Source: Acaryochloris marina MBIC11017 (GTDB lineage: Bacteria; Cyanobacteriota; Cyanobacteriia; Thermosynechococcales; Thermosynechococcaceae). From it: a DNA stretch of 32,000 nucleotides. Shown in pieces: positions 12,810 to 29,684 of the stretch. The notes beneath the pieces are model-generated. The model did no database searches. It had not been told where the DNA came from and saw only the letters and a program-made list of their open reading frames with translations. Made by a program: the position numbers and the translations under genes. Where the stretch lies: contig NC_009928.1 in the NCBI RefSeq assembly GCF_000018105.1, positions 210,001 through 242,000 of the forward strand, written 5' to 3'. The number at the start of each line of letters is the position of its first letter. The first letter of the stretch is position 1.

Positions 12810-13049
12810 ATGTACTCTGGCGTGAAAGTTGTTAGAACCCAAGAAATAAGCGTTCCTGGACTAGGCGACCGCATCAAAAGTGCAAGGGAAAATGATCCAA
12901 GATCCCTCAGTGCAATCTGTGGGGCAACTGGTATGAGTGCCACCAATTGGTATCGCATTGAATCTGAGAAGCAACTCTTGCCTGAAGAGACTTTGAGAAA
13001 AATTGAGTCAGTCTTAGGGGTTGATTTTGGAATTAAGTTTGACGAATAA
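12810..13049 (+). CDS. XRE-family helix-turn-helix transcriptional regulator
   Basis: Track ORF. ..LGDRIKSARENDPRSLSAICGATGMSATNWYRIESEK.. is a typical Cro/C1 HTH. Confidence 0.7.
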   Translation: MYSGVKVVRTQEISVPGLGDRIKSARENDPRSLSAICGATGMSATNWYRIESEKQLLPEETLRKIESVLGVDFGIKFDE

Positions 13050-13100: not shown

Positions 13101-13397
13101 ATGACCAATGAGCGATGGACCGATGAAAGGCTTGACCGCCTCGCCGATATCGTTGCCAACAACAGAGCTGACATTCAAGTCCTGATCCAGGGGCAAGAAA
13201 GATTGCAGAATGTCCAAACTGGACTGGCAGAAACACAAGGGCAGCTAGCACAAACACAAGAGGTTATTGCTAATGCTGTTACTGCAATACAAAATAGCCA
13301 AGAGAGACAGGAGGAAATCCTCAGTTCGCTAGCAGCAGGGCAAGAGAAGCAAGACAGAATCCTTGACTACCTGATGAGCCGCGACTCTAGCAGCTAA
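13101..13397 (+). CDS. coiled-coil hypothetical protein (98 aa)
   Basis: Track ORF. Q/E-rich heptad-like sequence. Its N-terminus (..ERLDRLADIV..) resembles that of 11524..11736. Confidence 0.5.
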   Translation: MTNERWTDERLDRLADIVANNRADIQVLIQGQERLQNVQTGLAETQGQLAQTQEVIANAVTAIQNSQERQEEILSSLAAGQEKQDRILDYLMSRDSSS

Positions 13398-13414
13398 GAA
13401 AACATTCCAAAAAC

Positions 13415-13545
13415 TCATAACACCCCCCACAGCCCACTTCTCGGACTTGTCCTAGGAAGCTCCGGGGTTCTCCTCTGGCGCTTCCGCAGGGCCAAAGATC
13501 TTCCGGTGGAGGTTCGGGGGGTGGGGGTGTGAGGGAGCTTGGGTC
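13415..13545 (+). repeat. G-arm/CA-arm repeat family, copy 1
   Basis: The core ggacttgtcctagg..ctggcgcttccgcagg..ggtggaggttcggggggtgggggtgtgagggagcttggg aligns with 13972-14130 and 29685-29836. It abuts the VOC stop codon. Confidence 0.7.
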
Positions 13546-13920
13546 TCAGTTCTCCTCATGGCTTGGACCGATTAGGCCAATCAAGTTCCCGTCAGGATCC
13601 ATCACCTGGCACATATACTTCCCATCTTGTCGATCTAATGGGCCACGATAGAGCTTGGCTCCTAAATTGAGTGCTCGTTCAAGTACCACACCGAAATCTG
13701 CAACTTGCCAATAGGCAACATGTCCCGCTGCTCCTGATGGCACTTTGCTATCCGATTGATGAAAACATACTTCATGATTGCCAACTTTTATAAAGAAGTG
13801 CTCCAAATTCTCTAACCAGGTAATCTCAATGTCAAACAAGGATGAATACCACGCTGCTGCCGCATAGCGATCAGAGACAAAATACATGACTTCAGCAACA
13901 TACTCAAACAAGCTACTCAC
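13546..13920 (-). CDS. VOC (glyoxalase/bleomycin-resistance/dioxygenase) family protein
   Basis: Track ORF. ..HVAYWQVADF..ALNLGAKLYRGPLD...MCQVMDPDGNLIGLIG is a typical VOC fold sequence. Confidence 0.8.
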   Translation of the reverse strand: MSSLFEYVAEVMYFVSDRYAAAAWYSSLFDIEITWLENLEHFFIKVGNHEVCFHQSDSKVPSGAAGHVAYWQVADFGVVLERALNLGAKLYRGPLDRQDGKYMCQVMDPDGNLIGLIGPSHEEN

Positions 13921-13971
13921 CTACAATTACTCTATCAACTGCTGACACCAACACCGTCTAATGGAATACTA

Positions 13972-14130
13972 GGACACCACAACCCGTATCAGCCAGCCTA
14001 AAACAATCCCAAGTCTACCCCTGAACTTGTCTTAGGGTAGGCTTGGGATCTGTCTTTGGAGCTTCAGCAGACCCACAGATCCCCTGGTGGGGGTTCGGGT
14101 GGTGGTGTGAGCGAGTTCGGTTATGGTGGC
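13972..14130 (+). repeat. G-arm/CA-arm repeat family, copy 2
   Basis: gaacttgtcttagg..ctttggagcttcagcagacc..ctggtgggggttcgggtggtggtgtgagcgag. The terminal ~12-nt arms gacaccacaacc and ggttatggtggc are imperfectly complementary. Confidence 0.7.
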
Positions 14131-14262
14131 ATCAAAGATGCGATCGCGAATCCAGCTTCAACAAATTACTAAAACAATCATTGAGATATCTCAGCTTCTA
14201 GGTAGATACAGAATTCTCTCCACATCATTTATCCTAGGCTCCAATATCCCTGGACCGAAGCC

Positions 14263-14676
14263 ATGACTTGCATCCCATTACTGGAGCCACAACAGTTGGA
14301 GTTGCTTAGTATCGCCATCAAACATCCCAATGAAATCATTAATCTTTCATATGAATTTCCTGTAACGGGTCAGCATGAACCACCGAGTCAACATCCTGCA
14401 TTCATCCAAGACTTGATCGATGAAAACCTGATTCAAGTACAAGTAACTGGACTTCAGATCCAGCGTTCCAAGGTTCAGCAAGAAAGCTGGTCAGTGTATT
14501 GTGATGACATTCATTCCCCCTCCCAAAAAGATTGGGAGTTGTGGCGAAAGGCGTTTACTGCCCAGAGAGCAGGTAGCATCATCCCTGACATGACACCTGG
14601 GGCTGGGTTTGAAGAATTCAGTAACGTCTGGATTCGCGAGATTGACCTTCAAGTTATTCAGCCCCAAAAGCTATGA
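14263..14676 (+). CDS. hypothetical protein (137 aa)
   Basis: Track ORF only. Confidence 0.45.
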   Translation: MTCIPLLEPQQLELLSIAIKHPNEIINLSYEFPVTGQHEPPSQHPAFIQDLIDENLIQVQVTGLQIQRSKVQQESWSVYCDDIHSPSQKDWELWRKAFTAQRAGSIIPDMTPGAGFEEFSNVWIREIDLQVIQPQKL

Positions 14677-14788
14677 TTGAAATAAGGTTTTCAGGGAAAG
14701 TCTGAAGCAGAATCGTCTCAGTTGCTTCAGTGGCTTATTGATGTGTGCTTAGCCCATGATTAGCGATTGCTATTTAGGAGGTTTCGTC

Positions 14789-14869
14789 ATGAACAACACC
14801 ATCTATGTCATTATCGGTATCCTCTGGTTTACTCTTTTCTTTTTCATGATCATCAACTTTATTTTATAG
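14789..14869 (+). CDS. 26-aa hydrophobic peptide (candidate small membrane toxin-like ORF)
   Basis: Own translation: MNNTIYVIIGILWFTLFFFMIINFIL. AGGAGG Shine-Dalgarno 7 nt upstream of the ATG. Confidence 0.3.
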   Translation: MNNTIYVIIGILWFTLFFFMIINFIL

Positions 14870-14992
14870 AGATAAATCTTGCTACATTTATGGGGTTTTG
14901 TCAGTCTTTTATGCAAACATCGCTACCTCGGTACTACCAAAATCAATCACCGAAATTCCGGTATTTGAGCATAGAAGTTAAAAACCACAAAA

Positions 14993-15160
14993 ATGGCAAT
15001 TCAGTCTACAAAAAGGTTTCAAGTGCTTTTCTCTGATGCACTCACCCAATCTCTCAGTGAAAGGGGCAAGGACAAGGAGTTGGTCTGTAGCCTGGTATTG
15101 GGATTGCGATGGTCTTCGACCGGCCTCCGGCCATCGCAAATAACAAGACCAAGACTTTAG
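14993..15160 (+). CDS. ribbon-helix-helix-like small protein carrying an in-frame copy of the palindromic mini-element
   Basis: Own translation: MAIQSTKRFQVLFSDALTQSLSERGKDKELVCSLVLGLRWSSTGLRPSQITRPRL. The N-terminus resembles CopG/RHH antitoxins (KR.QV.F.D.L...L). Residues LRWSSTGLRPSQ are encoded by the 34-bp palindrome. Confidence 0.35.
   Translation: MAIQSTKRFQVLFSDALTQSLSERGKDKELVCSLVLGLRWSSTGLRPSQITRPRL
15105..15138. repeat. 34-bp palindromic mini-element, copy 2 (opposite orientation to copy 1)
   Basis: tgcgatggtcttcgaccggcctccggccatcgca. See 9156-9189. Confidence 0.75.
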
Positions 15161-15193
15161 CGAAAACCCCAGACACCCCAAAGCTCACTCTTA

Positions 15194-15232
15194 GGCCTAA
15201 AACGACCGAAGCTGCGATATGGGGCAATTTAG
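15194..15232 (+). repeat. transposon terminal inverted repeat, left copy (unoccupied intron homing site at 15232/15233)
   Basis: ggcctaaaacgaccgaagctgcgatatggggcaatttag. It is 39/39 identical (40/40 including 15193) to the reverse complement of 20874-20912. Its length and its inner ..TTTAG end are reminiscent of Tn3-family 38-bp IRs, which end in TAAG. Confidence 0.8.
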
Positions 15233-15275
15233 TATATATGTACTTAAATGAGAGGCGATTCTGTCACAATTACCG

Positions 15276-15776
15276 TCAGCCCTCCTTCTCCACATGGAGC
15301 GCTTTTAGGGCTTGATAAGCCGTTCCACAATACGGACAGAATCGATGCTTGAGAGACGCAATCTGTTCATTGCAATTGACACATCTGTCTCGAAGTTGCG
15401 TACCGCAAACATAGCAGTATTGAGCACGGCTATGAAGCCAGATTGAATCTGGAGGCGTTCCCGGCCGCCAACAGTGAGGGCAAAACCGAATCCCTTGGTT
15501 GGGACTAACCACCGTTCCACGACAGACCGCATCAAGATAATCACTGGGAATTTGGAGGGCAGCTGCTAATCCTTGTTTCGTTTTCCGATTCAAGGAACTG
15601 GTTTTATTGCGTTCTAGCTTGCCATAGCTTTGGGCATGGACCCCTGCCTTTATCGCCACTTCCTTTTGGGACAAACCGAGCGTTGTTCGGAGACGATGGA
15701 CATAATCACCCAAGGATTCTCCAGCTTGTGGAACCGAGCTAGATTCTAAACGCTGCATTACAAGCTTACTCATCAA
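15276..15776 (-). CDS. XRE-type HTH protein with C-terminal double zinc ribbon (transposon passenger or regulator)
   Basis: Track ORF. ..LRTTLGLSQKEVAIKAGVHAQSYGKLERNK.. (HTH), then FCPHCW..YCYVCG..CVNCN..FCPYCG (four CxxC pairs). Confidence 0.7.
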   Translation of the reverse strand: MMSKLVMQRLESSSVPQAGESLGDYVHRLRTTLGLSQKEVAIKAGVHAQSYGKLERNKTSSLNRKTKQGLAAALQIPSDYLDAVCRGTVVSPNQGIRFCPHCWRPGTPPDSIWLHSRAQYCYVCGTQLRDRCVNCNEQIASLKHRFCPYCGTAYQALKALHVEKEG

Positions 15777-15839
15777 TCATTCATCAGAGGTATACTTCAT
15801 GCGGCTGTTGGAGCCTTAAGACTTAACAGAAAGATCATC

Positions 15840-16736
15840 ATGTCCAAGCCTTTGGCAATGGTTACAACCGAGTTTTTAGATCGCCCTGGCTTAGCTGCCA
15901 GCACGGTTCGCTCCTACGAATTCACCTTATTGCCTTTGCTTCAACAATATGGTCAGTGGTCCTTAGAATTACTCGACCGACAGACCCTAGAAGAATATCT
16001 CAATTCCTTGAGCCATCTATCGTTCAAGACTCATCATCGTCACCAAGCCATCCTACAAGCACTCCTCAACTTTGCAGTTGAGCAAGGATACCTGCGGTCT
16101 AATCCAATGACCCGTATGAAACGGCGTAAGCCAGATCCTGCTAAAGGAGAGCATGACTCAGACTAGATCATTCGATACCTAACCCCAGACCAACTACAGC
16201 TGCAATACCAACTGGTCAGCAAAGATGCTCGTACTGCAGCTCTTGTCCGCTTACTCCATCGCACCGGTGCCCGTATTTCTGAGCTACTTAGCTTAGACCT
16301 TGAAGCACTGGATCTGGAACAGCGCAAGTTTCAAGTGATTGGCAAAGGTAATCGACAACGGTGGTGTTTTTACAGCGAAGATGCAGCAGAAGTTTTGCAG
16401 AAATACTTGGCAGGGTATCGGCACCCCGGATCTCCAGCGCTGTTTACCGCACAGCAATACTTAAGTGGCCAGGTGAATCGACTCAGTTATCGGAGTGCCC
16501 ACCACAATTGGAAGCAGCTCATCAAAGGCCATCCAGCATTAGCTGGAATTCGGCTCCATGATCTGCGCCATACATTTGCCACCGAGAGAGTGGGCATCAT
16601 TGCCCTAGAAGAGCTCAGGGCCTTAATGGGGCATCAGAGTATTCAGACAACCTTGCGCTACCAAAAAGTCACTTCTGAGCAAGCACAACACGCAGCTCAA
16701 AGAGCCTTCAATAAACTCTCTCAAACCACCCTTTAA
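15840..16736 (+). pseudogene. tyrosine recombinase (TnpI/XerC-like) with a single in-frame TAG
   Basis: Track ORFs 15840..16166 and 16335..16736 are in the same frame. Own translation across the gap: ..KGEHDSD*IIRYLTPDQLQLQYQLVSKDARTAALVRLLHRTGARISELLSLDLEALDLEQRKFQVIGKGNRQRW... The C-terminal catalytic motifs HDLRHTFA and GHQSIQTTLRY are present. The TAG is at 16164-16166. Confidence 0.8.
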
Positions 16737-16959
16737 GGAGAGTTGAGTATTTCTTGAGAAATTGTCCTTATCCATGTCTATACAAGAATAGAGCCAAATT
16801 TAGAGAGTATGGACAGTACTGTGCAAGTGCAGACTATGAGTCAATTTAAAAGCCTGGGATCCTTGCTAAGAGCTACAGCAATAGCGGGACACACACTTTT
16901 GGATTCATCTGCAAAATCCGCTATCTTGTCGCGAGGGAGTGGTAAGCGGAGCAAGCGAT

Positions 16960-18750
16960 ATGAAGCGCCAATGGCAGCCGGATGAACTGATTGAATCCTT
17001 CATTTTGTTGCCCAATGAGTTGGAGCTTATTCCCAACTATCAGACCAACGCCACGGAGCATAACCAGCTGGGTTTTGCTGTGCTGCTGAAATTCTTTCAA
17101 CTTGAAGGTCGCTTCCCCAAGCACCTGGGCGAGATTCCTCAGATCGTCGTGGAGTTCATTGCCAAACAACTAAAGCTGACGCATCAAAGCTTGGTTGATT
17201 ACAAATGGAAAGGCCGGACTATCAAGGAGCATCGAGCTATCATCCGTTCCTTTCTCGGATGTCGTCCCACCCAGCAACCCGAAAAGAAGTCATTGATGAC
17301 CTGGCTCAAAGAGAAAGTGATGCCTCTGGGGCTCCATTTGAATGCGATTCGAGAGCAAGCCTATCAACGTCTGCGTCACCTTAAGCTTGAACCCCCTTCC
17401 CCCAAAGAATTGACCCGGCTTATCAGCTCAGCTGCCCACAACCATGAACAGGACTTTTGCCAAACAATTGCGGCACGACTCCCAGCAGATACTCGAAAAA
17501 GGATGGATGCTTTATTAGAAACAGAATTCACCCGAGACCATGAGGAAAGTCAGTTCCGGCAGTCCGACTTCAACCGTCTCAAGTCAGATCCGGGGCGTCT
17601 AGGCCTGAAAAGTCTCTTCAATGAAATCGATAAGCTGCAAAGTATCCGACAGATTCAGCTGCCTACAGATCTATTTGCCTCCTATTCTCCTAAGCTGATT
17701 GAGCAATATCGGCGTCGAGCCTCAGCCGACCTGGCGGGACGCCTACGCCGCCACCCAAAGGCCATTCGCTACACTCTCATTGCTTCGTTCTGTTATCAAC
17801 GCGAAAAAGAGATCACTGATAATCTAGTCGATTTGCTAGTCCAGACCATCCATCGTCTTAGCATCAGTGCCGAGCGTCGTGTAGAGCGAGAACTGATCGC
17901 TAATTTCAAACGCGTCAATAATAAAGAGGCCCTTCTATACCGAATTGCGGAAGCGGCCTTAGCCAATCCAGATCAACCCGTTAAAGAGGTGATCTTTCCG
18001 GTCGTTAGTCCCGATAAATTGACTAACGTAATTGAGGAGCGAAAACGAACCGGCATTACCTACCGAGAAAAAGTGAATGTCAAGATTCGAGCCTCTTATT
18101 TGCATCACTATCGGCGGATGGTGCCGGCCATTTTGGAGACCCTGGATTTTCACTCCAACAACGAGCAGCATCGCCCTGTCATTGAGGCCATTGAATTGCT
18201 CAGGCAGTATCAGGGCAGTGGAAAGCGATACTTCACTGAGGATGAAAAGGTGATCACCACTGGTGTCCTAAAAAGCGGTTGGCGCGAGCTCGTCATCGAA
18301 TCCAATTCCAAAGGCCAAGACCAGGTCAACCGCGTCAACTATGAAATCTGTGTCTTGCAAACGCTGCGAGACACACTGCGCTGTCGTGAAGTGTGGGTGA
18401 TGGGTGCCAAACGCTACGGGAATCCTGATACGGATTTACCCCAAGATTTTGAAGCTCAACGAGAGCAGTACTATTTAGAACTCAACCAACCCTTGGATGC
18501 TGAAGCCTTCGTCACGAAACTGAAACTGGATATGACGGCAGCTCTGTCCTCCTTAAATACGAGCATCCCCAACGATCCACAGGTCAATATTCTGTCCCGA
18601 GGTAACGGCTGGATTAGTGTTACCCCCTACCCGGCTCAAGAGGAACCCAGTAATATCCACAAACTGAAACAGGAGGTGGCGAAACGCTGGCCAATGACCA
18701 GCTTGTTGGACATCCTCAAGGAAACGGACCTGCGCGTTAATTTGGCCTAA
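16960..18750 (+). pseudogene. tnpA: Tn3-family transposase, N-terminal ~600 aa only
   Basis: Track ORF; the ATG at 16960 is preferred. It has a DUF4158-type N-terminus (..ELIESFILLPNELELI..NQLGFAVLLKFFQLEGRFP). Full-length Tn3 transposases are ~1000 aa. The final codons and the TAA are supplied by the intruding terminal repeat (..aat ttg gcc taa). Confidence 0.85.
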
Positions 18751-19024
18751 AACGACCGAAGCTGAGATGGGCCAATGACGTTGCTCAAGCATCGATTCTG
18801 TCCGTATTGTTGAACGGCCTATCAAGCCCCAAAAGCACTCCATGTGGTGAAGGAAAGCTGCCGGCAATAGTGGCAGAATAGTCTCTCATTTAAGTACAAA
18901 TATAGTCAGGTAGAGAGGACCTCTTCAATACTTAGGTCTGCTTTGTATTCCCTGTTTCTCCCTCCTTTCGGCTCAGGAGTGTCACAAGATTTGACCCTAT
19001 ATTGTTGAGAGCCTCCCCCCCACA

Positions 19025-19057
19025 GAAGCCCGCCTGCGGTTTTCCCGCACGAGCCTC
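19025..19057 (-). ncRNA. group II intron domain V candidate
   Basis: Minus strand: GAGGCUCGUGCGG-GAAAA-CCGC-AG-GCGGGCUUC. It has a 9-bp lower helix, a 2-nt bulge on the 3' strand, a 4-bp upper helix and a GAAA-type loop. It starts 21 nt after the RT stop. Confidence 0.6.
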
Positions 19058-19078
19058 TTCATATAGCCTTTGTCAGGT

Positions 19079-20377
19079 TCAATAGAGAGAAACCAATCGC
19101 CTGGGGCGTGGTAATGGGTAGCATGCTTCATAGTGCAGAAAATCACCCCATGAAAAGCTTCGCCGTTGACTGCGACGATTGAGCCACTTAAATAGCAGCT
19201 TGTAGACTTCTCGCCTGAAGTAGTACAGAGATTGACTATTGTCGGTCACTCCAAAGTAGTTAAAGTGCCCACACAACTTCAAACTCACTACTCGCCAGAT
19301 CACAGGAAGCTTATAGATATTGCGTACCTTCCGCAACCACATTTTTAGTTGCTTAAGGGAGCGACGTAGCCGTTTCTTTGATGTCTTACGTTTCATGCGG
19401 ACATACCCCTTGCGACTCCGGCCCCAATAGTGGGTCAACCCAAGAAAATCAAAGGTTGATGGACGTTGCCCAGTCTGGAAACAGCGCCGAGCATTTCTTT
19501 TACCAAAGGCCAACAAGTGGGTTTTCTTTGTATTTAGTCGTAAGCCATATTTCTCCAGCCGTCGCGGCAGTACCCGCATAAATCTAATGGCATCTTCTTC
19601 ATGTTCAAACACAGCCGCAACATCGTCTGCGTATCGAATAATGGCGCAATACCCTCGGCAGTGATGTCTCACTACGTTGGTAAACCATTGGTCCAACACG
19701 TAGTCGAGGAAGATATTCGCAATCACAGGGGAGACGATTGAGCCCTGAGGACTTCCGAGTTCGTCGTACACCACGCCTCCAGGTGTTTGTATGCCCGCTT
19801 TGAGCATCCGTGCTATCAGACGCAGAAGATTCCCGTCCTTTATTCGGATACTCAATACGGAAAGGATTTCCTGGTGAGGCATTGTGTCGAAGAATTTGGC
19901 TAGATCGATATCAGCGACCCAATTTACGGGTTTACGCATCACTTCCCTATTTAGCTGCCTTAAAGCATCATGGCAGCTCCGCTTTGGGCGGAATCCATAT
20001 GAGGTGTCGATAAACACGGGTTCATAGATCGCTTCTAGGATCCGACGGGTCATCTCCTGAACTACTTTATCTTCCGTACAGCTGATCCCTAAAGGACGCA
20101 TACTGCCATCCTCTTTTGGGATCTCTACCTGACGCACCGGTTGGGGTCGATACGACATTTGGCGTAGTTTCAGGTGTAGATTCTGGAGATTAGTCTCCAA
20201 ATTTTCCTGGTACTCCGCCTTGGTCACTCCATCTACTCCAAGCGCTTTGTTTCCATCCAGCGACTCGAAGCAGGCTCGCAGATTTTCCACACTATAGTGG
20301 TGCATCAGAGCCGTGAATGGCTCCTCTGGATGATTACGAGCCCGACTAGCTATCCGTTCAACTCCTGTTTCCGCCAT
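19079..20377 (-). CDS. group II intron reverse transcriptase/maturase (no endonuclease domain evident)
   Basis: Track ORF 19079..20446; the ATG at 20377 (MAETGVERIA.., GAGGTGGA Shine-Dalgarno) is preferred. RT blocks are present, including ..RRVEIPKEDGSMRPLGI.., ..FDTMPH.., ..GSPQGSIVSPVIANIFL.., ..IRYADDVAAVF... The maturase X region is ..LCGHFNYFGVTDN... Confidence 0.9.
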   Translation of the reverse strand: MAETGVERIASRARNHPEEPFTALMHHYSVENLRACFESLDGNKALGVDGVTKAEYQENLETNLQNLHLKLRQMSYRPQPVRQVEIPKEDGSMRPLGISCTEDKVVQEMTRRILEAIYEPVFIDTSYGFRPKRSCHDALRQLNREVMRKPVNWVADIDLAKFFDTMPHQEILSVLSIRIKDGNLLRLIARMLKAGIQTPGGVVYDELGSPQGSIVSPVIANIFLDYVLDQWFTNVVRHHCRGYCAIIRYADDVAAVFEHEEDAIRFMRVLPRRLEKYGLRLNTKKTHLLAFGKRNARRCFQTGQRPSTFDFLGLTHYWGRSRKGYVRMKRKTSKKRLRRSLKQLKMWLRKVRNIYKLPVIWRVVSLKLCGHFNYFGVTDNSQSLYYFRREVYKLLFKWLNRRSQRRSFSWGDFLHYEACYPLPRPRRLVSLY

Positions 20378-20873
20378 GAGTCCACCTCTGCGTGTAGATG
20401 ACGTTTCCGTTGGACGGGCGACTATATGTGTCCCCCTTCGCTCCATGGGCGTTACTCCATTTCTTCACTACTATGAGGACATCCGACTTCCCATTAACCA
20501 TCAGGCTTCCTCCTGGTTTGCCAGTTGTGCTGCCTTACCCCCACAAGGGAGGAGTTAGTGGGATCTCCCGAGTTCCCAGCTTTGCCTTGGTGACGTGCCA
20601 CGGTCTTTGACCCCGGTGGACCTGCTAGAGCCATGGCTATTGGCTCTTTAAGTTTTGCCTTCCATGATTTAGAACATGTCGGCATCCACAGTTATTGGGG
20701 ATAACGGGGCTCAATCCCTTCACGCTTACGCATTGCGGCCCATCACCTCCTTGTGTACGCTTCACTCCCCTCGTTACCGGGAACAGTGCAACACTCAGTA
20801 CTTAGTGCCTAGCCAAGGCTTCTAGGGTGAGGACTTTCACCTCACGGACAAAGCCGAGCTTTGCTCGGCGCAC

Positions 20874-20912
20874 CTAAATTGCCCCATATCGCAGCTTCGG
20901 TCGTTTTAGGCC
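20874..20912 (-). repeat. transposon terminal inverted repeat, perfect inverted copy (serves as the intron 5' exon)
   Basis: Reverse complement of 15194-15232, 39/39 identical. Confidence 0.8.
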
Positions 20913-20913
20913 T

Positions 20914-21300
20914 TGTGGCGACAGTATCTCCGTCGATTTGCGCTGGAGCATTGGTATCGGTTTGTCCGCCAGCGTCTCCATTGGACCGTTCCCCAACCCT
21001 CAACCATAGAGCAAATGGAAGCTTGGTCGGATCTGATGCCCCTGCTCACCTGGCAGTTATGGCTGGCGCGTTCCCTCGTCGAAGATACGCCACTACCCTG
21101 GCAAAAAAAGGTTGACTCACTATCTCCAGGACGGGTTGCTGACTCTATTACTGCACTTTTAGCAAGGATTGGTTCCCCTGCACCTGACCCCAAACCTCGC
21201 GGAAAGTCGCCGGGGTGGACGACTGGCAGAAAAAGAACTCCGCGACCTCGCTATCCAACAGTAAGGGAAAGAGCATCCAAGCCCCCAAAAACGGAGAAGG
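20914..21300 (+). pseudogene. IS4/IS701-like DDE transposase, C-terminal fragment
   Basis: Track ORF 20913..21392 begins abruptly at the IR junction. WRQYLRRFALEHWYRFVRQRL fits the Y-x2-R-x3-E-x6-K/R signature of IS4-superfamily catalytic domains. It has a basic P/R/K-rich tail. No N-terminal part exists anywhere in the window. Confidence 0.55.
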
Positions 21301-21692
21301 TAGCCGCCTATGCTTCCGATCTTAGTCTCGTAATATCGCGATCATGCGAGAGAAGTGCTCGCGTGATAATTTCTGCTGAAGCTTCTTTTTAGTCTAAATT
21401 CCAATTGATATGGCAATCCTAAATGTCGAAGCGGTTTTAAGATCAGTACATCGGTCCAATTGGATCTGAAGTTGTTCGATTTTATCTAGCGTTAACAGAG
21501 ACATAGATGACCACACCACTAGATTGCAAGCTTAATTAAACCATTTAATGGTATAAAAATCTGTTCCTGCCATACGACGATCACAAATTTAGCCCCGTTG
21601 ATTTCATCAACTTGCAGTTTCTCTAAGACTGGATCTTGAATAAATTATTAATAAATATCGTAGACATATAAAGATTACACTCCCGCTTCCCT

Positions 21693-21721
21693 TGGCTTAT
21701 CCTTTGTTCTCACGGTAAATT
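21693..21721 (+). promoter_or_regulatory. candidate sigma-70 promoter conserved upstream of both DUF4259 paralogs (copy 1)
   Basis: TGGCTT-17 nt-TAAATT. The whole ~45-nt block gcttatcctttgttctcacggtaaattgtcc is conserved with 31325-31355. Confidence 0.4.
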
Positions 21722-21748
21722 GTCCTTGAAGCTAACCAGAGTACTTCA

Positions 21749-22147
21749 ATGGGCACATGGGGACCAGGGAGCTTTGAGAATGATGATGCAATAGACTGGG
21801 TTGCAGAGCTAGAGAGCTACTCAGACGATGGCCCTATCATTGATGCCCTCAACACCATCATTGACAGAGCCGATGATTACCCACAACCTCTAGATTGCTC
21901 CGTTGCCATTGCGGCGGCAGAGTTAGTTGCTGCACAGTTAGGTAATTCCCATGAGGACTGCCCAGAGGAAATCGAGATATGGGTAGAGGGGCATCCAGCC
22001 CCCTCAGCAACGAGGATTGCCCAGGCTCGACAAGCCATCGAGGTAATTCTGGCTGAATCTGGACTCAAGGAAATGTGGCAAGATTCAGATGAATGGGAGA
22101 AATGGGAAGAAGCGATGGAGGATATGCTGTCTAGACTGCCATACTGA
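21749..22147 (+). CDS. DUF4259 domain protein
   Basis: Track ORF. MGTWGPGSFENDDAIDWVAEL.. is the DUF4259 signature N-terminus as I recall it. Paralog of 31380..31778. Confidence 0.7.
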   Translation: MGTWGPGSFENDDAIDWVAELESYSDDGPIIDALNTIIDRADDYPQPLDCSVAIAAAELVAAQLGNSHEDCPEEIEIWVEGHPAPSATRIAQARQAIEVILAESGLKEMWQDSDEWEKWEEAMEDMLSRLPY

Positions 22148-22232
22148 GGAAGAATTATGACTCCTAAAGATTTCTACAGACTTAAGCGATTGTTCAATAC
22201 ACCCCCTAAGATGGGGCTTTGGGAGTATTGTT

Positions 22233-22811
22233 GTGGACGATTACGACCAACCAGAAAATAGCGATGATGATATCCCTATAAATGACAATGCCGGGGCACA
22301 ACTTATCCAAAAGCTAAAAACTTATCTTGCTCCAGGGGCGTCACTCCTAGAGCTAGGAATGGGGTCAGGCAAAGACTTGAATCTATTGAGTCAATCTTAT
22401 GTCGCCACAGGCTCTGATTACTCTCAAGACCTTCTCGATTGCTATCTCAGACGATTTCCTAAAGCTGATTTAATCTTACTAAATGCACTCACATTACAGA
22501 CTGTCAGAAAATTTGACTGCATTTATTCAAACAAAGTCCTTTATCAGTTGACCCCTTTCGAACTGAAAAAGTCGTTGGTGCAACAACATCGAATCTTAAG
22601 CGATAAAGGAATACTCATGCACTCCTTTTGGTATGGGAGCCACGTTGAAGACTTTCACGACACAATATGCACCTATTACACTGAACAAACCTTAAATGAA
22701 ATCATTAGCAAACGTTTTGAACTCTTGGAGATACAGAAGTACCAAGAGATAAGGAAAGGGGACTCTATTTATATCCTGCTTCGCAAATCAACCCATGCGG
22801 TCCACCTCTGA
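22233..22811 (+). CDS. class I SAM-dependent methyltransferase
   Basis: Track ORF. Motif I is ..SLLELGMGSGKDLNLL... The acidic residue after beta-2 is ..ATGSDYS... The start codon is uncertain (GTG). Confidence 0.7.
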   Translation: MDDYDQPENSDDDIPINDNAGAQLIQKLKTYLAPGASLLELGMGSGKDLNLLSQSYVATGSDYSQDLLDCYLRRFPKADLILLNALTLQTVRKFDCIYSNKVLYQLTPFELKKSLVQQHRILSDKGILMHSFWYGSHVEDFHDTICTYYTEQTLNEIISKRFELLEIQKYQEIRKGDSIYILLRKSTHAVHL

Positions 22812-22979
22812 ATCACTGTTACTCAGGTTTTATCTTTCATACCGCTCTTGTTCATCAATGCATAATACTTGCTACGCTCAATCCATGGGTTCATGCTCAA
22901 GAAATGCTTACTCACGCTAATTGCTGCTGAATGTTTTGTCGGACTCGAAAATATCCTTCATCATCAGGAGGAAAAATTG

Positions 22980-23321
22980 ATGAAATTTCAAGACATTTTT
23001 GAGTACTTCAAAAACCCTCCTCCTACCAAACTGTGTCAAGAAGTAGCAGCATGCTTTATCTTGTCTGTACTAATCGATTTGGGTGACTCCGATTTTACAG
23101 CCATAAGCCAATATCTTAAGTCTAAGCATCCAGCTTATCGGGTGTCAGATCACATTCTGTATATTGCCCGAAATTTCTTAGTTGATGAGGCTCTGATTCT
23201 ATCTTATTGGCAAAAACAACCTGGTCAGGGCAGACCAAACCAAATGTATAAAATCTCAGTAGAGAAGCAAGGTGAAGCACTACAGCTAGCCCAACTCTGG
23301 CATCGTTATCTGGGTGAGTAA
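22980..23321 (+). CDS. PadR-like winged-helix transcriptional regulator (tentative)
   Basis: Track ORF trimmed to the ATG at 22980 (AGGAGG Shine-Dalgarno). ..GQGRPNQMYKISVEKQGEAL.. resembles the PadR wing motif (R.K.Y.lT..G). Confidence 0.45.
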   Translation: MKFQDIFEYFKNPPPTKLCQEVAACFILSVLIDLGDSDFTAISQYLKSKHPAYRVSDHILYIARNFLVDEALILSYWQKQPGQGRPNQMYKISVEKQGEALQLAQLWHRYLGE

Positions 23322-23704
23322 AATTAAACGATTGCTTATTGCTTGGGCATCTGGCTCAATAAGAGTGAGAATATAAGTCCAAATGATATGCCTGGGGAGA
23401 TATCTAAGATGCCCAGCACCCATGATCCAATTAGAGGCATACCCCTAACCGATAAGCCAGCAGAGACTTCTAGATGCGGGATGTCCAATGCATCCTTCGC
23501 TCAACATCGCACTTCTAAAAGATGGTATGAGCTTTCAGTTGGAGGGAGAATTCTTGGCTCACCACTGGAATTTGACTTCTACAGACATGGAAATCAGCAA
23601 GGACCAAGTACACGGTCTACGGTCAAAACCAAGGAATTATCCAAGATTTCGTGAAGTCCTGATCCAGGCAATTCTACCTTACTCTAAGTAGCGCAGGTTT
23701 ATCT

Positions 23705-23974
23705 CTATGCCCCTGAGAAGTATTTGCTTTCTCGAATAGACTTGGCAACTTGGTCATTAGAAAGAATAGCAGTGGAAGTACCACTGCAGTGTGGCGGTAC
23801 ACTCTCTGGGTAGCAGGCTTCCCATGCTTCCGCCATCGCTCTAACTGCAACTTCTAATGGCAACTTTTGTAGATGTTTATATTGGTGAAATTTGATACTG
23901 ATCGTCAGTTGCTTTCTCAGGCGTGATATCTCATCTGAATCAGCCGTTTCACTGAATTGCTTCGGTCCCCCCAT
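23705..23974 (-). CDS. hypothetical protein (89 aa from the internal ATG)
   Basis: Track ORF 23705..24067, trimmed to the ATG at 23974 preceded by GGGGAG. Divergent from the cyAbrB gene. Confidence 0.35.
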   Translation of the reverse strand: MGGPKQFSETADSDEISRLRKQLTISIKFHQYKHLQKLPLEVAVRAMAEAWEACYPESVPPHCSGTSTAILSNDQVAKSIRESKYFSGA

Positions 23975-24114
23975 ATCACTCCCCGCCTTGCAATGCTCTA
24001 TTCCTAGTGTGGGCAAATTATCTAAAAAATGACCCACCTCCAGAATTCGTCCTACACTCAATAGCAATTAATTTGCTTATCAAACTGGATGAAAGTAGAC
24101 AGTGAGGTTTAAAG

Positions 24115-24504
24115 ATGCCGAAGAAAACTAAAAAACAAAGTAAGCCTTTAGCAGGTCAAGCGCTATTGACTAAAGTTAAAGCTCTAAACGATTTGACTCG
24201 GGAAGAAAAAGCCAAAGCTTGTGGTTACTACAAAATCGCTAAAAGTGGCACTGAACGCATTAATGTGATGGCCTTCCTGAATGCAGTCTTAGATGCAGAA
24301 GGAATGGACCTGGATGCACAAGTCAAGCGCAACAAGAAGATGGGAGGACGTCAACCCAACTATCGCATCAGCGTACAATCTAACGGCAAGCTATTAGTCA
24401 GTAGTGCTTACACCAAGAAAATGGAGCTGCAACCGGGAGATGAGCTTGAAATTGCATTGGGGCGTAAGCATATTCATTTGAGACTCAAGACTGAAGAAGA
24501 TTAA
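24115..24504 (+). CDS. cyanobacterial AbrB-like (cyAbrB) transcriptional regulator
   Basis: Track ORF. The C-terminal SpoVT/AbrB domain ..YRISVQSNGKLLVSSAYTKKMELQPGDELEIALGRKHIHL.. combined with a basic N-terminal half is the cyAbrB architecture. Confidence 0.8.
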   Translation: MPKKTKKQSKPLAGQALLTKVKALNDLTREEKAKACGYYKIAKSGTERINVMAFLNAVLDAEGMDLDAQVKRNKKMGGRQPNYRISVQSNGKLLVSSAYTKKMELQPGDELEIALGRKHIHLRLKTEED

Positions 24505-24518
24505 TCATTGTGAAAAAA

Positions 24519-24549
24519 GACTCCCCTGTATTCTCTTCTACAGGGGAGT
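24519..24549 (+). terminator. rho-independent terminator after the cyAbrB gene
   Basis: gactcccctgta-ttctcttc-tacaggggagt, an 11-bp stem. An A-run lies before it and T-rich sequence after it. Confidence 0.6.
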
Positions 24550-24681
24550 TGAAAAAGCTTTTATAACCTCAGAGGAGTTTATTCCCGACATCCGCCTATG
24601 ACCCATTGATATTGCCCTGATTCCCAAATAAATCCTCCAACCCCTGCTATACAATGCTCATAAGCACTTTGAGGCAAGACC

Positions 24682-24957
24682 ATGAACAAAGGCGAGTTAG
24701 TAGACGAGATTGCTGATAACGCTGGGGTCACAAAGAAGCAGGCCGACACTATCCTCACAGCACTAACAGAAACCATCATGGAGACCGTTAGCTCTGGCGA
24801 TAAGGACTCTCTAGTGGGCTTTGGCAGCTTTGAGGCTAGGGACCGCAAAGCTAGAGATGGACGCAATCCAAGGACGGGAAAGAAGCTTAAAATCCCGGCG
24901 ACCAAAGCACCCGTTTTCAGTGCGGGCAAGGTCTTCAAGGAAAAGGTTAAGGGCTGA
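24682..24957 (+). CDS. hup: HU family DNA-binding protein
   Basis: Track ORF. MNKGELVDEIA.....FGSFEARDRKARDGRNPRTGKKLKIPATKAPVFSAGK is a canonical HU/IHF fold sequence. Confidence 0.9.
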   Translation: MNKGELVDEIADNAGVTKKQADTILTALTETIMETVSSGDKDSLVGFGSFEARDRKARDGRNPRTGKKLKIPATKAPVFSAGKVFKEKVKG

Positions 24958-25137
24958 TAGACTAAGAATATCGCTAAAGACTTAACCTCATTCCAACACC
25001 CAAGCTGGCGGATGCTCTGGTGATTCTGCCAGCTTCCTTATGCTGACATCTTTTTCCTGAGCATCAACGAGATAATCACTCAATTGCTAGCATTGGGGGG
25101 GACGACCTCGTAACGGTGATGTTTGTGAGGATCGATA

Positions 25138-25944
25138 ATGATTACTACTCCTGATAGTACTCAGAGCTACCTTCAGGAGATAGGACGCTATCCACTCCTA
25201 TCTCCTGAAGAAGAAATTAACCTCGCTCGGCAAGTAAAAGCGGGCAATCTACGGGCCAAACAACGGATGATCGAGTGTAACCTACGCCTGGTCGTCTCCA
25301 TTGCGAAGAAACACCAGAATCGGGGTCTACCTTTATTAGACTTAATTCAGGAAGGAAACATCGGGCTTAGTCGAGCCGTAGAGAAATTTGACCTAAATCA
25401 AGGCTGTCGGTTCAGCACCTATGCTTACTGGTGGATTTGGCAAGGAATCACACGAGCATTGCACAATAAGACCAAAATGATTCGACTGCCGATTCACCTC
25501 AATCAGCTCCACAGCAAAATTAAACGTACCTACTTCCAGCTCAACCAAGAATATGGGCGTCAACCATCCCTTGATGAAGTCGCTTATGCAATGGATATTG
25601 ACCCAACTCACATACAGGAACAGCTCCAACTCTCTCAAGAGGTTATCTCTTTAGATAAATTCGTGAGTGAAAACCAGGGAGACACATTAGGCGAACTCGT
25701 TGCCAAGGATCATTCTTCCCAAAAATACTTTGAGAATCTGATGAATAAAGATGAATTGTCCAAACTCATGGGGCACCTGAGTGAGCGACAACAATTCATC
25801 ATTGGTCAACGATTTGGCCTTGAAGATGGTCAACCTAAAACGCTGGTAGAGATTGCTAAGTTACTCGACATGAGTCGGGAGGGTATTCGCAGAATCGAGA
25901 AAAAGGCTTTCCAGCAATTAAAAAAGTATGCCCAATTTGCTTAG
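25138..25944 (+). CDS. sigma-70 family RNA polymerase sigma factor (group 2/3 type)
   Basis: Track ORF. Region 2 is ..[55 protein letters not shown]... Region 4 is ..[28 protein letters not shown]. Confidence 0.9.
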
Positions 25945-26124
25945 GTAACCCCTAGACATCCAAGTACCCTGTGGTGATTCACAGGACATTCATCGGATCT
26001 TCAATCTTATCTGGGAACAAGAGCAGCTATCTAGAGGGGGAGCTTGCACCAAAGCCTCACAAGTTGTGCAGCCAAATCCCCCACCCCATAGATGATCTTA
26101 GGGATGGACAGCACACAACTACAA

Positions 26125-26832
26125 TCACAAAGAGTCAGTCAAGAGTCTTGGATCTAAAGCAACATCAGAACCGCCATCTGAAACCATCGATCCATCAAAA
26201 CCTTGCTGAGTTCCACTTCTTTGGCTGCTCTCATCCTTCCACTTCTGCGGTATATCTCTAGCATTGTCCCAACTACCAATTGATGACCAATTCGTTTCAA
26301 GATCAAAACGGATGTTGAGAAGGTCTGCTCCCTCAAAATTAGCTCCTTCAAGATCCGCACCAGAAAGATCCGCTTCATAGAGATTAGCTTCACATAGGTA
26401 GACTTCACAAAGGCTCGCCTGACTGAGGTCTGTCTCACTGAGATTGGCTTTGTAAAGATAGGCTCTACAAAGGTTGGCACCACGGAGATCGGCTTTATAG
26501 AGGTTGACGTTATAGAGATTGGCTTTCCAGAGACTAGCCGTACACAAGTCAGCCTCAATGAGGTTGGCGTCTTTAAGGTTCGCTTTACTTAAAATGGCAC
26601 CACGAAGATTGGCTTTCCAGAGGCTGACTTCACAAAGGCTGGCCTGACTGAGATTAGCACCCGTGAGATTAGCCCCGATCATGATCGCTTTATCAAAGTT
26701 AGCCCCATGTAGATCCATCCCAGTCAGGCTGGCCTTGCTGAGGTTAATCGATACCTTGAGATTTTCCTTTCTCCACTCATTCCAAACTTCAACACCCTGA
26801 CTCAGCAAGGCTATCTGTTCCTGATTAGCCAT
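26125..26832 (-). CDS. pentapeptide repeat protein
   Basis: Track ORF. Long run of A(D/N)LxG/A(N/D)Lxx repeats (..ANLTGANLSQASLCEVSLWKANLRGAIL..). Confidence 0.9.
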   Translation of the reverse strand: MANQEQIALLSQGVEVWNEWRKENLKVSINLSKASLTGMDLHGANFDKAIMIGANLTGANLSQASLCEVSLWKANLRGAILSKANLKDANLIEADLCTASLWKANLYNVNLYKADLRGANLCRAYLYKANLSETDLSQASLCEVYLCEANLYEADLSGADLEGANFEGADLLNIRFDLETNWSSIGSWDNARDIPQKWKDESSQRSGTQQGFDGSMVSDGGSDVALDPRLLTDSL

Positions 26833-27064
26833 CGTTAGTTCTCAAGAATGCTCTGAAGTCAATTTTCTTATCCCATGCATGATAGCAATGCTTTCGGGAA
26901 ATTCTGGAAAACAAACATGAGCTTGAAATCCCCATATTCCCAGTAACCCAGAAACACCAGAGAACAGGCATTGGAATGACTTGAGGCAACTCATCTAAGC
27001 TGCTGGGGGAATTCGTTAGACTAGATAGCAAGGCTTGCAAACTGCAATCCTCACACCACACTAA

Positions 27065-27162
27065 ACTGACAGATGCCCATAACACTGTCAGTTTTTCATA
27101 GCCGACACCATTACAAGGCCCAAAACAGAAAGAACCCCTACAGCGCAGTATCTCTAGGGGGG
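27065..27162 (+). repeat. terminator-hairpin plus conserved ~70-nt tail module, copy 1
   Basis: actgacag-atgcccataaca-ctgtcagt-ttttc, then atagccgacacc..gcccaaaacagaaagaacccctacagcgcagtatctctagggg. Aligns with 28217-28314. Confidence 0.65.
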
Positions 27163-27298
27163 TATACCGTTAAGAAGTTTCATATCGTAGATAAGGGGAA
27201 CTCTGAGGAAACCCCTATCAGAATGTATCAAGCAAATCTGAGGATAGTGATTATCACTCCCTCAAATGGAAAAACAAATCTCAAAGGGTCACTCTAAA

Positions 27299-27393
27299 GC
27301 TATTTACGGGTTCACCTTAACGGTAACCTGTATAACGATTGCCTGTACTGCGTTCCAGGGATTTAGTAGGCCGGAAGGGAACCCGTAAATAGC
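27299..27393. other. 95-nt long imperfect hairpin (15-bp perfect basal stem); candidate structured RNA or miniature element
   Basis: gctatttacgggttc (27299-27313) pairs with gaacccgtaaatagc (27379-27393). Further pairings are ccttaacgg/ccggaagg and cctg/cagg. It is flanked by the 9-nt direct repeat tatcactcc at 27252-27260 and 27399-27407. Confidence 0.4.
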
Positions 27394-28216
27394 AAGAGTA
27401 TCACTCCTCCGACATACCCCCTAAGCGAGTTAACCAATGTGTAGTTTCAGGGCGTTTTTGTCAACTTAAGATGCCCAAATGCCGACCATGAGAGGACTCA
27501 GAGACACTGGAACCTCATCACCAGCAGCAAGAAACCCCTCAAAGCTCTCCAGGAGATTCAAGGGGCGACCCTGTATTCATGGACATCAACAAGGTCTTAA
27601 GGAATGCTTCCCAGACTCTACCAATCAAATTTGGGGATAGTTGGGGGCTCTAAAATCTCATCCTATTAATAAAATCCCTCTAAAGACACGCGCCTTAGAG
27701 GGATTCAACCGTGTTTCCATTTCTATTCAGATGCTATCAGTAGAATATGTGCATAGTTTGAAGCTAATAGCAGGTTTCATCGCTACCCACCGAAGCTTTC
27801 TACAACGGCACTCCCATCGCCCCACCCTCAAATCATCTGACGACAGAACAGAAGCTGGAACTGCTGGACTGGCATCCGATCTTCGCGGGACGATGCCCCA
27901 ACTGTGAGAGGCCGATCCGGGAGACTACGCCACCGAGGAGTCACTGGGAGTGTGCGGAGTGTGGATGGAGGGATGAGTCAGAGCGCAATCACACTGAGAA
28001 CTCGCCGTAATCAATCACCGGGATTCCAACATGAGGTTTTGCGTTTTCAAATCGCAAAACTCCAAATCCTTTCAAAGTTCTCATACAAATGCTGCCATTC
28101 TTCATCTGTTACTACTTCAGCTTCAGTCCATAGTGTAAGCAATACTCCAGAGAAAATTAAAGCTGATACAGTGAATGCAGTGTTCGCGACACGTTCACTC
28201 TATTTACTACGCTAGG

Positions 28217-28314
28217 CTGGCAGGCACCCATAACCCTGCCAGTTTTTTTATAGCTGATACCCGTCTCAATGCCCAAAACAGAAAGAACCCCCTACAGCAC
28301 AGCATCTCCATGGG
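28217..28314 (+). repeat. terminator-hairpin plus conserved tail module, copy 2
   Basis: ctggcagg-cacccataac-cctgccag-ttttttt, then atagctgatacc..gcccaaaacagaaagaaccccctacagcacagcatctccatggg. The stem sequence differs from copy 1 but pairing is preserved. Confidence 0.65.
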
Positions 28315-28329
28315 TCTCTATTACATTCA

Positions 28330-28484
28330 GGTTTTTTTGCACAACCCCTCGGAAAGGTATATTCCAGGCTTTTGAAGTGTAGGTATAACCGAGTAAACTA
28401 TGGCTATGAGTCTTTTATCGTAAGAGTTTTAGCCATTTTGGGAAATTAGTGTGAGCGCTGAAAGATCACCTCAAAAAGTATACC
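28330..28484 (+). repeat. ~155-bp imperfect inverted repeat, left arm, flanking the DinB gene
   Basis: ggtttttttgcacaacccctcggaaaggtatattccaggcttttgaagtg..gagtcttttatcgtaagagtttt..attagtgtgagcg.. aligns with the reverse complement of 29521-29677. Roughly three quarters of positions match by eye. Confidence 0.7.
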
Positions 28485-28647
28485 TTTTTAAACCTTGCAA
28501 AAAGTGTGTCTTAAATTATGTCTCAGAAGTGCTTTCTCGAAAATCCTAAGAGATTGTAAGACATGTCTTTAACGTTTCTGGTCAATGGTTGCAAATAACC
28601 TCCGCAAACATACCACCCCCTTCTACCAATACGCTGCACCAGGGTTG

Positions 28648-29157
28648 TTAAGCGGCAACAAACTGAGGCATGAATGGAATGTCTGTGCTCCCAATATCTA
28701 ACCCCATTTGTGAGAGCAAAGTAGTCACTTGCCCCCTGTGGTGTGTTTGATGATTGAACATATGCATCACCAAAGCCCAGCGGGGAACTGTGCGAATTTT
28801 GCCGTCAACCTTACTTTGATATGTTTGCTCTTCGTCCAACCAAATGGGATCTAGCGCTGAAACCCAATCTATGATCCGAATATCCAACGCTTCTCTCTCT
28901 ACCCTAAGATCCGTAAATGAAGAAGCTAACTCTTGACCTAGCTCAGGAACCTGCACTGGATTGCCTGTGAATCGAGATAAAAATGCTAAATCCCCGTACA
29001 TAATGTGGTTAATCGTCATGTAAATAGAATCAAAAAAGGCTTTTCGATCTAGCCGAAGCTCCTCTTCGGACAATCTCGAACACACATCAAAGAGCTTGAT
29101 ATTCATCCACTGATTATATTTAGCCAATAGCTGAAAGCATTTGTGTTCAGACATCAC
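28648..29157 (-). CDS. DinB family protein (DinB/YfiT-like metal-dependent four-helix bundle)
   Basis: Track ORF. ..LAKYNQWMNIKLFDVC..INHIMYGDLAFL..MHMFNHQTHHRGQVTTLL.. shows the DinB His triad pattern. Confidence 0.85.
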   Translation of the reverse strand: MMSEHKCFQLLAKYNQWMNIKLFDVCSRLSEEELRLDRKAFFDSIYMTINHIMYGDLAFLSRFTGNPVQVPELGQELASSFTDLRVEREALDIRIIDWVSALDPIWLDEEQTYQSKVDGKIRTVPRWALVMHMFNHQTHHRGQVTTLLSQMGLDIGSTDIPFMPQFVAA

Positions 29158-29520
29158 TACTCCAGATCAGAAAATTGACAACCTTTATGAATCCTATTAG
29201 TAACCATCCGACCTGTCACTTAGTAACCATCCGACCTGTCACCCACATTGATCGAGCTTTGCAATATTCAGTATGTTTTCTGGCTTCGATTTAGAATCCA
29301 GCATTCACTGGCCCAAAACAAGGGCGGCAATTGTTTGTGGCTTTTCTTGCCACCTAACGCTTCGTCAACAGGACTTCCGATGAAATACCAAAAGCTACTA
29401 CCTTCGAATGATGCTGCACCTGCCATTCTGAGCAGCTGATAGAGTGCTGAGGATGGCCTCAGTAGGTATATGAAACGATGCTCTGTTTTCTTTTCTCATG
29501 TCCTACCTGTGTCTCCTCAT

Positions 29521-29677: not shown

Positions 29678-29684
29678 AGCCTCG

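Follow-up and report, generated by a model that had tools for sequence, protein, structure and literature searches.

A 32,000-nt stretch of plasmid pREB3 of Acaryochloris marina MBIC11017 (hereafter, the window; positions 210001-242000 of contig C4 in the 8.36-Mb, ten-contig assembly) contains three copies of a repeat, which we denote el, at the boundaries between gene modules. Judging from its sequence, el appears to be an undescribed, lineage-specific, dispersed repeat of about 150 bp that is non-coding. What is observed directly is the family itself, its restriction to plasmids, the placement of its copies, the chimerism of some of these and the variable size of the intervals between them. 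At a probability of about 0.5, we favor the interpretation of el as a passive patch of homology for recombination between plasmids, as opposed to a site-specific cassette site, an active miniature inverted-repeat transposable element (MITE) or an RNA element. What we rate as new is the lineage-restricted family; the kind of element to which it would belong, dispersed intergenic repeats acting as recombination substrates, is already known.

A repeat search of the window recovered a direct-repeat family of exactly three members sharing a 62-nt core at 73-84% identity. In a MAFFT alignment, the mean column identity of the three is 75% across about 150 nt, and their E-values against the nhmmer profile range from 1e-44 to 1e-54. 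Copy 1 (13415..13547), copy 2 (13980..14135) and copy 3 (29684..29836) all lie on the plus strand, which confirms the three same-orientation copies reported in the first-pass annotation of this DNA, with boundaries that agree within a few bases; a sequence-only covariance model bounds the copies at 13417-13547, 13987-14133 and 29691-29834. The 5' end of copy 1 lacks the usual GCGATCGCAACCCGTATCAC terminus, and its 3' end is truncated, at ...TTGGGT, by the stop codon of a gene of the VOC/glyoxalase family (13546..13920, minus strand). Copy 2, which begins 52-65 nt upstream of the start codon of this gene, is a chimera. Copy 3 is full length and is the only copy with perfect terminal inverted repeats of 9-10 nt; it begins 11 nt past 29569-29673, the right arm of an inverted repeat around a DinB gene. 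These three adjacencies stand as originally described. A coding remnant is ruled out by 1-nt indels between the copies in the core, stop codons in every frame of most copies and the lack of 3-base periodicity.

Genome-wide homology search extended the family beyond the window. In the MBIC11017 genome (G000), iterated nhmmer, a rebuilt profile and the sequence-only covariance model agree on eight copies, all of them on five plasmid contigs: three on C4, two on C5 (pREB4) and one each on C2, C3 and C7 (pREB6). The chromosome (C1; 6.5 Mb, 6,503,724 nt, 78% of the DNA) contains no copies detectable with nhmmer or the covariance model, and the latter identified none on plasmids C6, C8 and C9. Four of the seven other Acaryochloris genomes hold one to five copies (in one of these four, a weak partial match only). 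The repeat is absent in 39 genomes from 13 other genera of the same family, and a search of the plasmid collection yielded matches in Acaryochloris plasmids only. Two exact-pattern scans, covering one genome each for 185,579 species, and a metagenome scan returned nothing, in collections from which close relatives appear to be missing, as loci already known to match did not come up either. In agreement with the initial description of the family as undescribed, nothing is annotated beneath the el matches in the RefSeq records of related plasmids, and Rfam produced no match at the gathering score in the window and none up to E = 5 on three loci holding four copies. In total, there are about 25 copies in existence, many sharing descent, and the statistics on orientation and covariation are therefore weak; 21 copies were used in the comparisons of folds, z-scores and covariation.

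The flanks of el are mosaic. All-against-all BLAST of the 1.4-kb flanks showed that the left modules (VOC, NERD nuclease, GGDEF cyclase, and a helix-turn-helix (HTH)-coiled-coil gene pair) combine with several right modules (X, E, VOC and others), and vice versa. As a left module, VOC is joined to module X in the window, to another module on pREC3 and to a third one in genome G002. Module X, a 137-aa gene without an assigned function (14263..14676, plus strand), is joined to the 3' part of el in the window, on pREB6, on pREC2 and in G002; its left partner is VOC in the window, NERD on pREB6 and GGDEF in G002. Module E (29857..30599, plus strand), which consists of a conserved upstream region with the palindrome TCCGTAAACTTTCGGA followed by a 163-aa gene, is the right neighbor of copy 3 and is joined to the DinB unit in the window and to the HTH-coiled-coil pair in genome G005. 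These comparisons support the earlier proposal that the copies mark boundaries between gene modules.

Some copies of el are mosaics themselves. Up to position 14105, copy 2 is 99% identical to a copy on pREC3 (3 differences over about 200 positions), and past this point the two are unrelated; from position 14092 onward, copy 2 is near-identical to the copy on contig 21 of G002, and the identity before that position is only about 55-60%. The switch of partners between 14092 and 14105 (plus strand) indicates that the exchange occurred within GGTTCGGGTGGTGG, the best-conserved block of the family. The pREC3 copy in the position of copy 1 combines three sources: the first 55 nt resemble the C7 copy, the central 100 nt resemble copy 3, and the sequence at the VOC junction resembles copy 1. 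Overall, the breakpoints fall at about 50, 110-123 and 135 within el, with no single crossover point. The repeat also diverges more than its surroundings, with 79% identity against 97% in the flanks for copy 1 compared to pREC3, and 62% against 93-95% for copy 2 compared to C7, as expected if the copies exchange sequence with non-allelic copies. In the NERD-el context, the only one that is conserved across species (in the Moss Beach strain), el is 64% identical compared to 61% for third codon positions and thus shows no sign of strong purifying selection; the association of the two is retained even at 77% identity of the gene.

At the locus between the HTH-coiled-coil pair and module E, the distance between el copies is 0, 0.8, about 5 or 16.3 kb, depending on the strain. 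On contig 21 of G002, a single el joins the HTH-coiled-coil pair to module E, with flanks 73% and 92% identical to those in the window, and on contig 151 of G005, a single intact el is joined directly to module E. Plasmid pMB03 of the Moss Beach strain has el, one 153-aa gene and a partial el, and pREC3 has el, VOC and el followed by about 5 kb. In the window, copies 1 and 3 are 16.3 kb apart, and this interval (13409..29750), which is absent from contig 21 of G002, encompasses VOC, copy 2, module X, Tn3-family remnants, a group II intron, a second AbrB-HU-sigma block, a pentapeptide-repeat gene and the DinB unit. On pREB4 (C5:86141-87552), a pair of genes for a Gp49/HigB-like toxin and an HI1420-type HTH antidote is found in place of the 3' third of el.

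The first-pass annotation viewed VOC as a unit flanked by direct repeats. The gene is indeed bracketed by direct copies, but each of the two junctions is found separately elsewhere: the el-VOC junction alone on pREB2 and pREC1, where VOC is the last gene in an operon of three, and the VOC-el junction alone in G002 and on pMB01. Therefore, the bracket need not be a cassette; a single crossover within VOC between two such loci would yield the same arrangement. Single genes between direct copies are found at two loci, namely, VOC in the window and on pREC3, and the 153-aa gene on pMB03. Arrays never exceed three copies.

About 15 distinct contexts of el were separated using open reading frames and the RefSeq annotation of relatives. 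In nine of these, a co-oriented gene has its stop codon 3-100 nt ahead of el; three more show the same arrangement at a distance of 155-205 nt. At least five contexts have a small XRE-type HTH gene upstream, alone or together with a coiled-coil gene of 97 aa; among the other upstream genes are those for the NERD nuclease and the GGDEF cyclase and a 258-aa gene. On the right, el is followed by a co-oriented gene that starts 75-400 nt further on, or by the 3' end of a convergent gene. The co-oriented arrangement is not seen upstream of VOC (copy 2 with three relatives), at copy 3, whose neighbor is the DinB foldback unit, or at the C3 copy. Most of the G000 copies occupy one homologous region of the plasmid backbone, at the start of or inside a variable region of accessory genes, a placement that would account for the plasmid restriction of the family. 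This backbone region includes DUF932, DUF3768 and a small HTH gene (with or without the coiled-coil gene) upstream of el, and an 80-aa gene and genes for AbrB-like, HU and sigma-70 proteins 1-4 kb downstream. The 80-aa, AbrB and sigma-70 genes are present 1-4 kb downstream at four of seven loci (HU at two), and DUF3768 upstream at three of the seven. Plasmids C6, C8 and C9 carry relaxases along with paralogues of backbone-associated genes (X137, coiled-coil gene), yet no el, which argues that el is neither an origin of transfer nor an indispensable part of the backbone. Indeed, with TrwC-type relaxases encoded on C2-C9, el lies 15-130 kb from the relaxase gene and is present in three copies on C4 and two on C5, so that a role as the origin of transfer of MOBF plasmids, which would imply one el per relaxase plasmid and proximity to the relaxase gene, was rejected. 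The segment GGGTGTGGTGG resembles the nick region of the F plasmid; this resemblance was likewise discounted, given that the block is poorly conserved in el and el is not tied to relaxases.

Under the mechanism that we favor, el would be a part of the backbone shared by Acaryochloris megaplasmids, at the start of and within the variable accessory region. With similar copies on several co-resident plasmids, el would provide short patches of homology at which the plasmids could undergo recombination or gene conversion; as an outcome, gene modules would be swapped, inserted, deleted or bracketed. The exchanges would be driven by homology, through RecA-type recombination or template switching, with no dedicated recombinase involved, and el would have no function at the RNA level. 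We prefer this passive role because the breakpoints are scattered along el, because no recombinase can be tied to it (an intact integron integrase is missing from the genome, and no recombinase recurs in the el neighborhoods) and because the conserved core lacks dyad symmetry. The strain has seven copies of recA, which have been suggested to promote homologous recombination between replicons, and its genome is among the largest and most duplicate-rich bacterial genomes, with much of the difference between strains residing on plasmids (PMC3156569). A Chi-like hotspot was considered in view of the resemblance of CTGGTGG to the Escherichia coli Chi site and rejected, as G000 encodes no RecC and no AddA above the cut-off. 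A 150-bp repeat at the seams between modules offers a testable handle on the movement of VOC, DinB, toxin-antitoxin pairs and whole transposons between plasmids and, locally, is of value for understanding the plasticity of Acaryochloris plasmids.

Several observations weigh against a purely passive repeat. Across the 21 copies, three blocks, CTCTGGCACTTCA, CCCGCAG and GGTTCGGGTGG, are nearly invariant and may reflect a sequence-specific function, for instance, protein binding or RNA processing. The best-resolved crossover involves 14 nt of identity, which is short for a RecA-mediated exchange and also fits the core site of a recombinase. A passive repeat does not account for the orientation bias and the proximity to stop codons in 9-12 of the about 15 contexts, and the arrival of el in unrelated gene contexts is not explained by this mechanism.

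The orientation bias is one reason to consider that el might act in cis as RNA within the 3' untranslated region (UTR) of the upstream gene, either terminating transcription in a non-canonical manner, serving as a signal for stability or processing, or giving rise to a 3'-derived small RNA, a possibility that we deem unlikely. The position behind a co-oriented stop codon in 9-12 of about 15 contexts, and also at the 3' end of the convergent next gene, would suit such an element, but neither the context upstream of VOC (copy 2 and three relatives) nor copy 3 has a co-oriented upstream gene. Long imperfect hairpins are predicted for copies 1 and 3, with -67/-70 kcal/mol on the plus strand compared to -57/-48 kcal/mol on the minus strand, the former being more stable because of G-U pairs; the previously described 9-nt pairing at the termini of copy 3 (ATACCACCA/TGGTGGTAT) is also present in the sequence. 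At the level of the family, however, no conserved RNA fold is detectable by RNAalifold, z-scores or covariation. The minimum-energy folds vary among the 21 copies, the RNAalifold consensus amounts to -2.9 kcal/mol (-2.7 on the plus strand and -0.15 on the minus strand in an earlier alignment), and the mean z relative to dinucleotide shuffles is about -0.6 (-0.59 plus, -0.51 minus). When the copy 3 hairpin is mapped onto the 21 copies, 69.4% of the cells are paired compared to 68.4% in shuffled alignments (45 of 500 shuffles as high), and the covariation score is 0.154 compared to 0.152 (193 of 500 as high). One element, a GC-rich apical hairpin formed by alignment columns 73-83 and 97-108, reaches about 75% pairing over the family, but a helix scan over all column pairs identified only short mutual pairings of the repeated YCTGG/TCGGG motifs (CTGG/TCGGG), so that both a long-hairpin RNA and a central hairpin were rejected for lack of a conserved helix in either the consensus fold or the column-pair search.

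Within 12700-14800, which covers copies 1 and 2, the search for intrinsic terminators (a hairpin plus a T tract) found none, compared to 2.1 expected from shuffles; toward its 3' end, el is rich in G and T and has no T runs. There is no Rfam match, and el evolves at about the rate of third codon positions. The G-quadruplex motif noted earlier, GGGGGG-T-GGGGG-TGTGA-GGG-AGCTT-GGG, is present in copy 1 but is not conserved: under the definition of four runs of at least three G with loops of up to 7 nt, copy 1 alone qualifies, copy 3 would need a loop of 13 nt, and the number of GGG runs is two in most copies. The earlier suggestion of a structured non-coding RNA or UTR element is not supported at the level of the family. 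More generally, RNA structure or G-quadruplexes deduced from a few copies may mislead, as the structural-looking features of the window vanish across 21 copies. A tRNA-like origin of the GGTTCGGG segment was likewise abandoned, as ARAGORN detected no tRNA or tmRNA gene in the window.

A different explanation takes el to be the recombination site of a dedicated site-specific system, similar to attC or to a resolution site, with the adjoining single genes captured and excised as cassettes. Although several features fit, we regard this as distinctly improbable. Single genes are bracketed at two loci (VOC in the window and on pREC3, the 153-aa gene on pMB03), VOC and DinB are typical cassette-type genes, the homology of the NERD module begins exactly at the start codon and ends with el, the best-resolved crossover lies within the most conserved 14-nt block, and tyrosine recombinase genes are found near el on some plasmids. 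However, no recombinase is consistently linked to the el neighborhoods, and G000 encodes no intact integron integrase, the best match to TIGR02249 scoring 124.5 bits against a cut-off of 265 and covering model positions 1-125. The alignment lacks both RYYYAAC/GTTRRRY core sites and a conserved hairpin, dyad symmetry is missing from the conserved block, the other breakpoints occur at differing positions of el instead of a fixed crossover point, arrays contain at most three copies, and the neighboring modules X and E have no el of their own. With the crossovers scattered and an intact integrase missing, the earlier idea of a cassette-boundary site is not sustained. The TIGR02249 match itself, a 155-aa frame at G000:C1:2623416-2623790 (L020; E = 2e-35), is chromosomal, with no el nearby, and looks like a truncated integron integrase.

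In a broader version of this idea, to which we give little credence, el would be the attachment site of an unrecognized gene-capture platform on cyanobacterial megaplasmids, with a novel recombinase or an extra RecA paralogue acting at the GGTTCGGGTGGTGG core. If this were the case, the outcome would be integron-like, with single accessory genes moving in and out beside a 150-bp site at a fixed position of the backbone.

The possibility that el is a MITE, perhaps inserting into the HIP1 palindrome GCGATCGC just downstream of genes, appears very doubtful as well. The size of el and its presence behind unrelated genes are compatible with a MITE, and copy 3 has perfect terminal inverted repeats of 9-10 nt, but in the consensus the terminal repeat is weak (GTATCAC versus ATACCAC, 5/7), and several copies lack one end. 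Several copies have GCGATCGCA (HIP1) at both ends, which could be a duplicated target and is the only hint of a MITE that we retain. On the opposite side, no transposase-encoding element in G000 carries the el ends, and outside el the terminal motifs amount to isolated chance matches; there are 1-8 copies per genome, confined to one region of the plasmid backbone. No empty site was found when the flanks were compared with G000, the genus and the plasmid collection: the NERD, GGDEF and VOC contexts keep el in every relative seen, and the paralogues available for this comparison are either too diverged or always el-bearing. The earlier suggestion of a MITE is accordingly weakened by the lack of a consistent terminal repeat, of a partner transposon and of an empty site, and by the low copy number. 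A relationship to Tn3 was rejected: GGGGTCTG matches the start of the Tn3 terminal repeat, but this segment varies within the family.

Finally, the sequence might be read as a DNA site for plasmid proteins (an HTH operator, an AbrB or HU site, or a promoter for a plasmid sigma factor), which is highly improbable: a small XRE-type HTH gene lies just upstream in at least six contexts, AbrB, HU and sigma-70 genes lie downstream, several short blocks and YCTGG-type sub-repeats are conserved and a promoter-like site immediately precedes copy 2, but the upstream HTH proteins are mutually non-homologous while el is constant, in five contexts a gene converges on el, contrary to what a promoter would suggest, and C6, C8 and C9 encode relaxases and paralogues of backbone-associated proteins (X137, coiled-coil) in the absence of el. 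The promoter-like site ahead of copy 2 (13942-13970, plus strand; CTGACA, 17 nt, TGG-AATACT) ends a few bases before the repeat and is conserved in all four relatives with the VOC-el junction.

Compared with known systems, el as a passive homology patch would work most like the intergenic repeats of the ERIC/Correia type combined with the hotspots for variable DNA in the backbones of conjugative elements. ERIC/IRU and the Neisseria Correia repeats (NEMIS) are, like el, non-coding intergenic repeats of 100-150 bp, often located just behind genes, with some dyad symmetry; they encode no transposase themselves and are used as substrates in rearrangements. ERIC and Correia repeats number tens to hundreds on the chromosome, with clear terminal inverted repeats, a TA target duplication and a hairpin that is conserved, whereas el is present in 1-8 copies, almost only on plasmids, and has no conserved fold. 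The hotspots of SXT/R391 integrative and conjugative elements, together with recombination between dispersed repeats such as insertion sequences, share with el the presence of 0-16 kb of accessory DNA at the same intergenic point of a backbone and the origin of mosaics by exchange between co-resident elements; in contrast to these hotspots, a specific 150-bp repeat, which has itself been duplicated and become chimeric, marks the one described here. The attC sites, such as the Vibrio cholerae repeats of 123-126 bp, resemble el in length, in their position directly 3' of small accessory genes (VOC) and in the bracketing of genes by direct copies. However, el is associated with no integron integrase, R''/R' core sites, conserved bottom-strand hairpin or long arrays, and its crossovers are scattered; in short, el fails every testable defining feature of attC. 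The pdif modules of Acinetobacter plasmids are also small accessory modules bounded by short repeated sites in varying contexts, but pdif sites are 28-bp, dyad-symmetric XerC/XerD sites in inverted orientation, in contrast to the 150-bp direct copies of el with no dyad-symmetric core.

The genes around the window copies include members of the modules discussed above. Copy 1 is preceded by the backbone pair, namely, the gene for a small HTH regulator of 79 aa (12810..13049, plus strand), the first of the two, and the coiled-coil gene of 98 aa (13101..13397, plus strand), whose stop codon lies 6-20 nt ahead of the repeat. To the left of copy 3 is the DinB unit (28333..29673), in which the DinB gene (28648-29157, minus strand) lies between inverted repeats of 105 nt. 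The 137-aa protein of module X has no Pfam match and at least 17 paralogues in G000, at 39-95% identity, across the chromosome and eight plasmids, only two of which follow el. The right end of this module (14885-14945) contains an imperfect inverted copy of the 3' terminus of el along with the HIP1 region (TGGTAGTACCGAGGTAGCGATG versus TGGTGGCATCAAAGATGCGATCGC), and on contig 3 of G002 the module, 805 bp in length, is missing and its flanks are joined. The paralogues of module E elsewhere mostly lack el. Upstream of the 163-aa gene of this module, in 29857-29900, is the palindrome ATTTCCGTAAACTTTCGGATACAG, probably an operator by its sequence, which is conserved in at least six paralogous loci, most of them without el (C2:342016, C2:120118, C3:55289, C5:86136 and C1:211830 among the sites).

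A further repeat, a 34-bp palindromic mini-repeat (TGCGATGG...CCATCGCA), occurs at 9156-9190 and 15104-15138 of the window and in many more copies on the chromosome; one relative (L014) has it immediately to the right of el, and in the Moss Beach plasmid it separates the NERD gene from el. A tyrosine recombinase is encoded in 15840-16736 in two frames, one with the SAM-like N-terminal domain and the other with the catalytic domain; in the whole-genome search, the same split gene appears as one 328-aa frame with an internal TAG. Two DUF4259-type genes (21685-21810 and 31315-31441) together with their upstream regions are 85% identical and 9.6 kb apart, and belong to a block (DUF4259 ... AbrB-HU-sigma-70) that is duplicated in the window.

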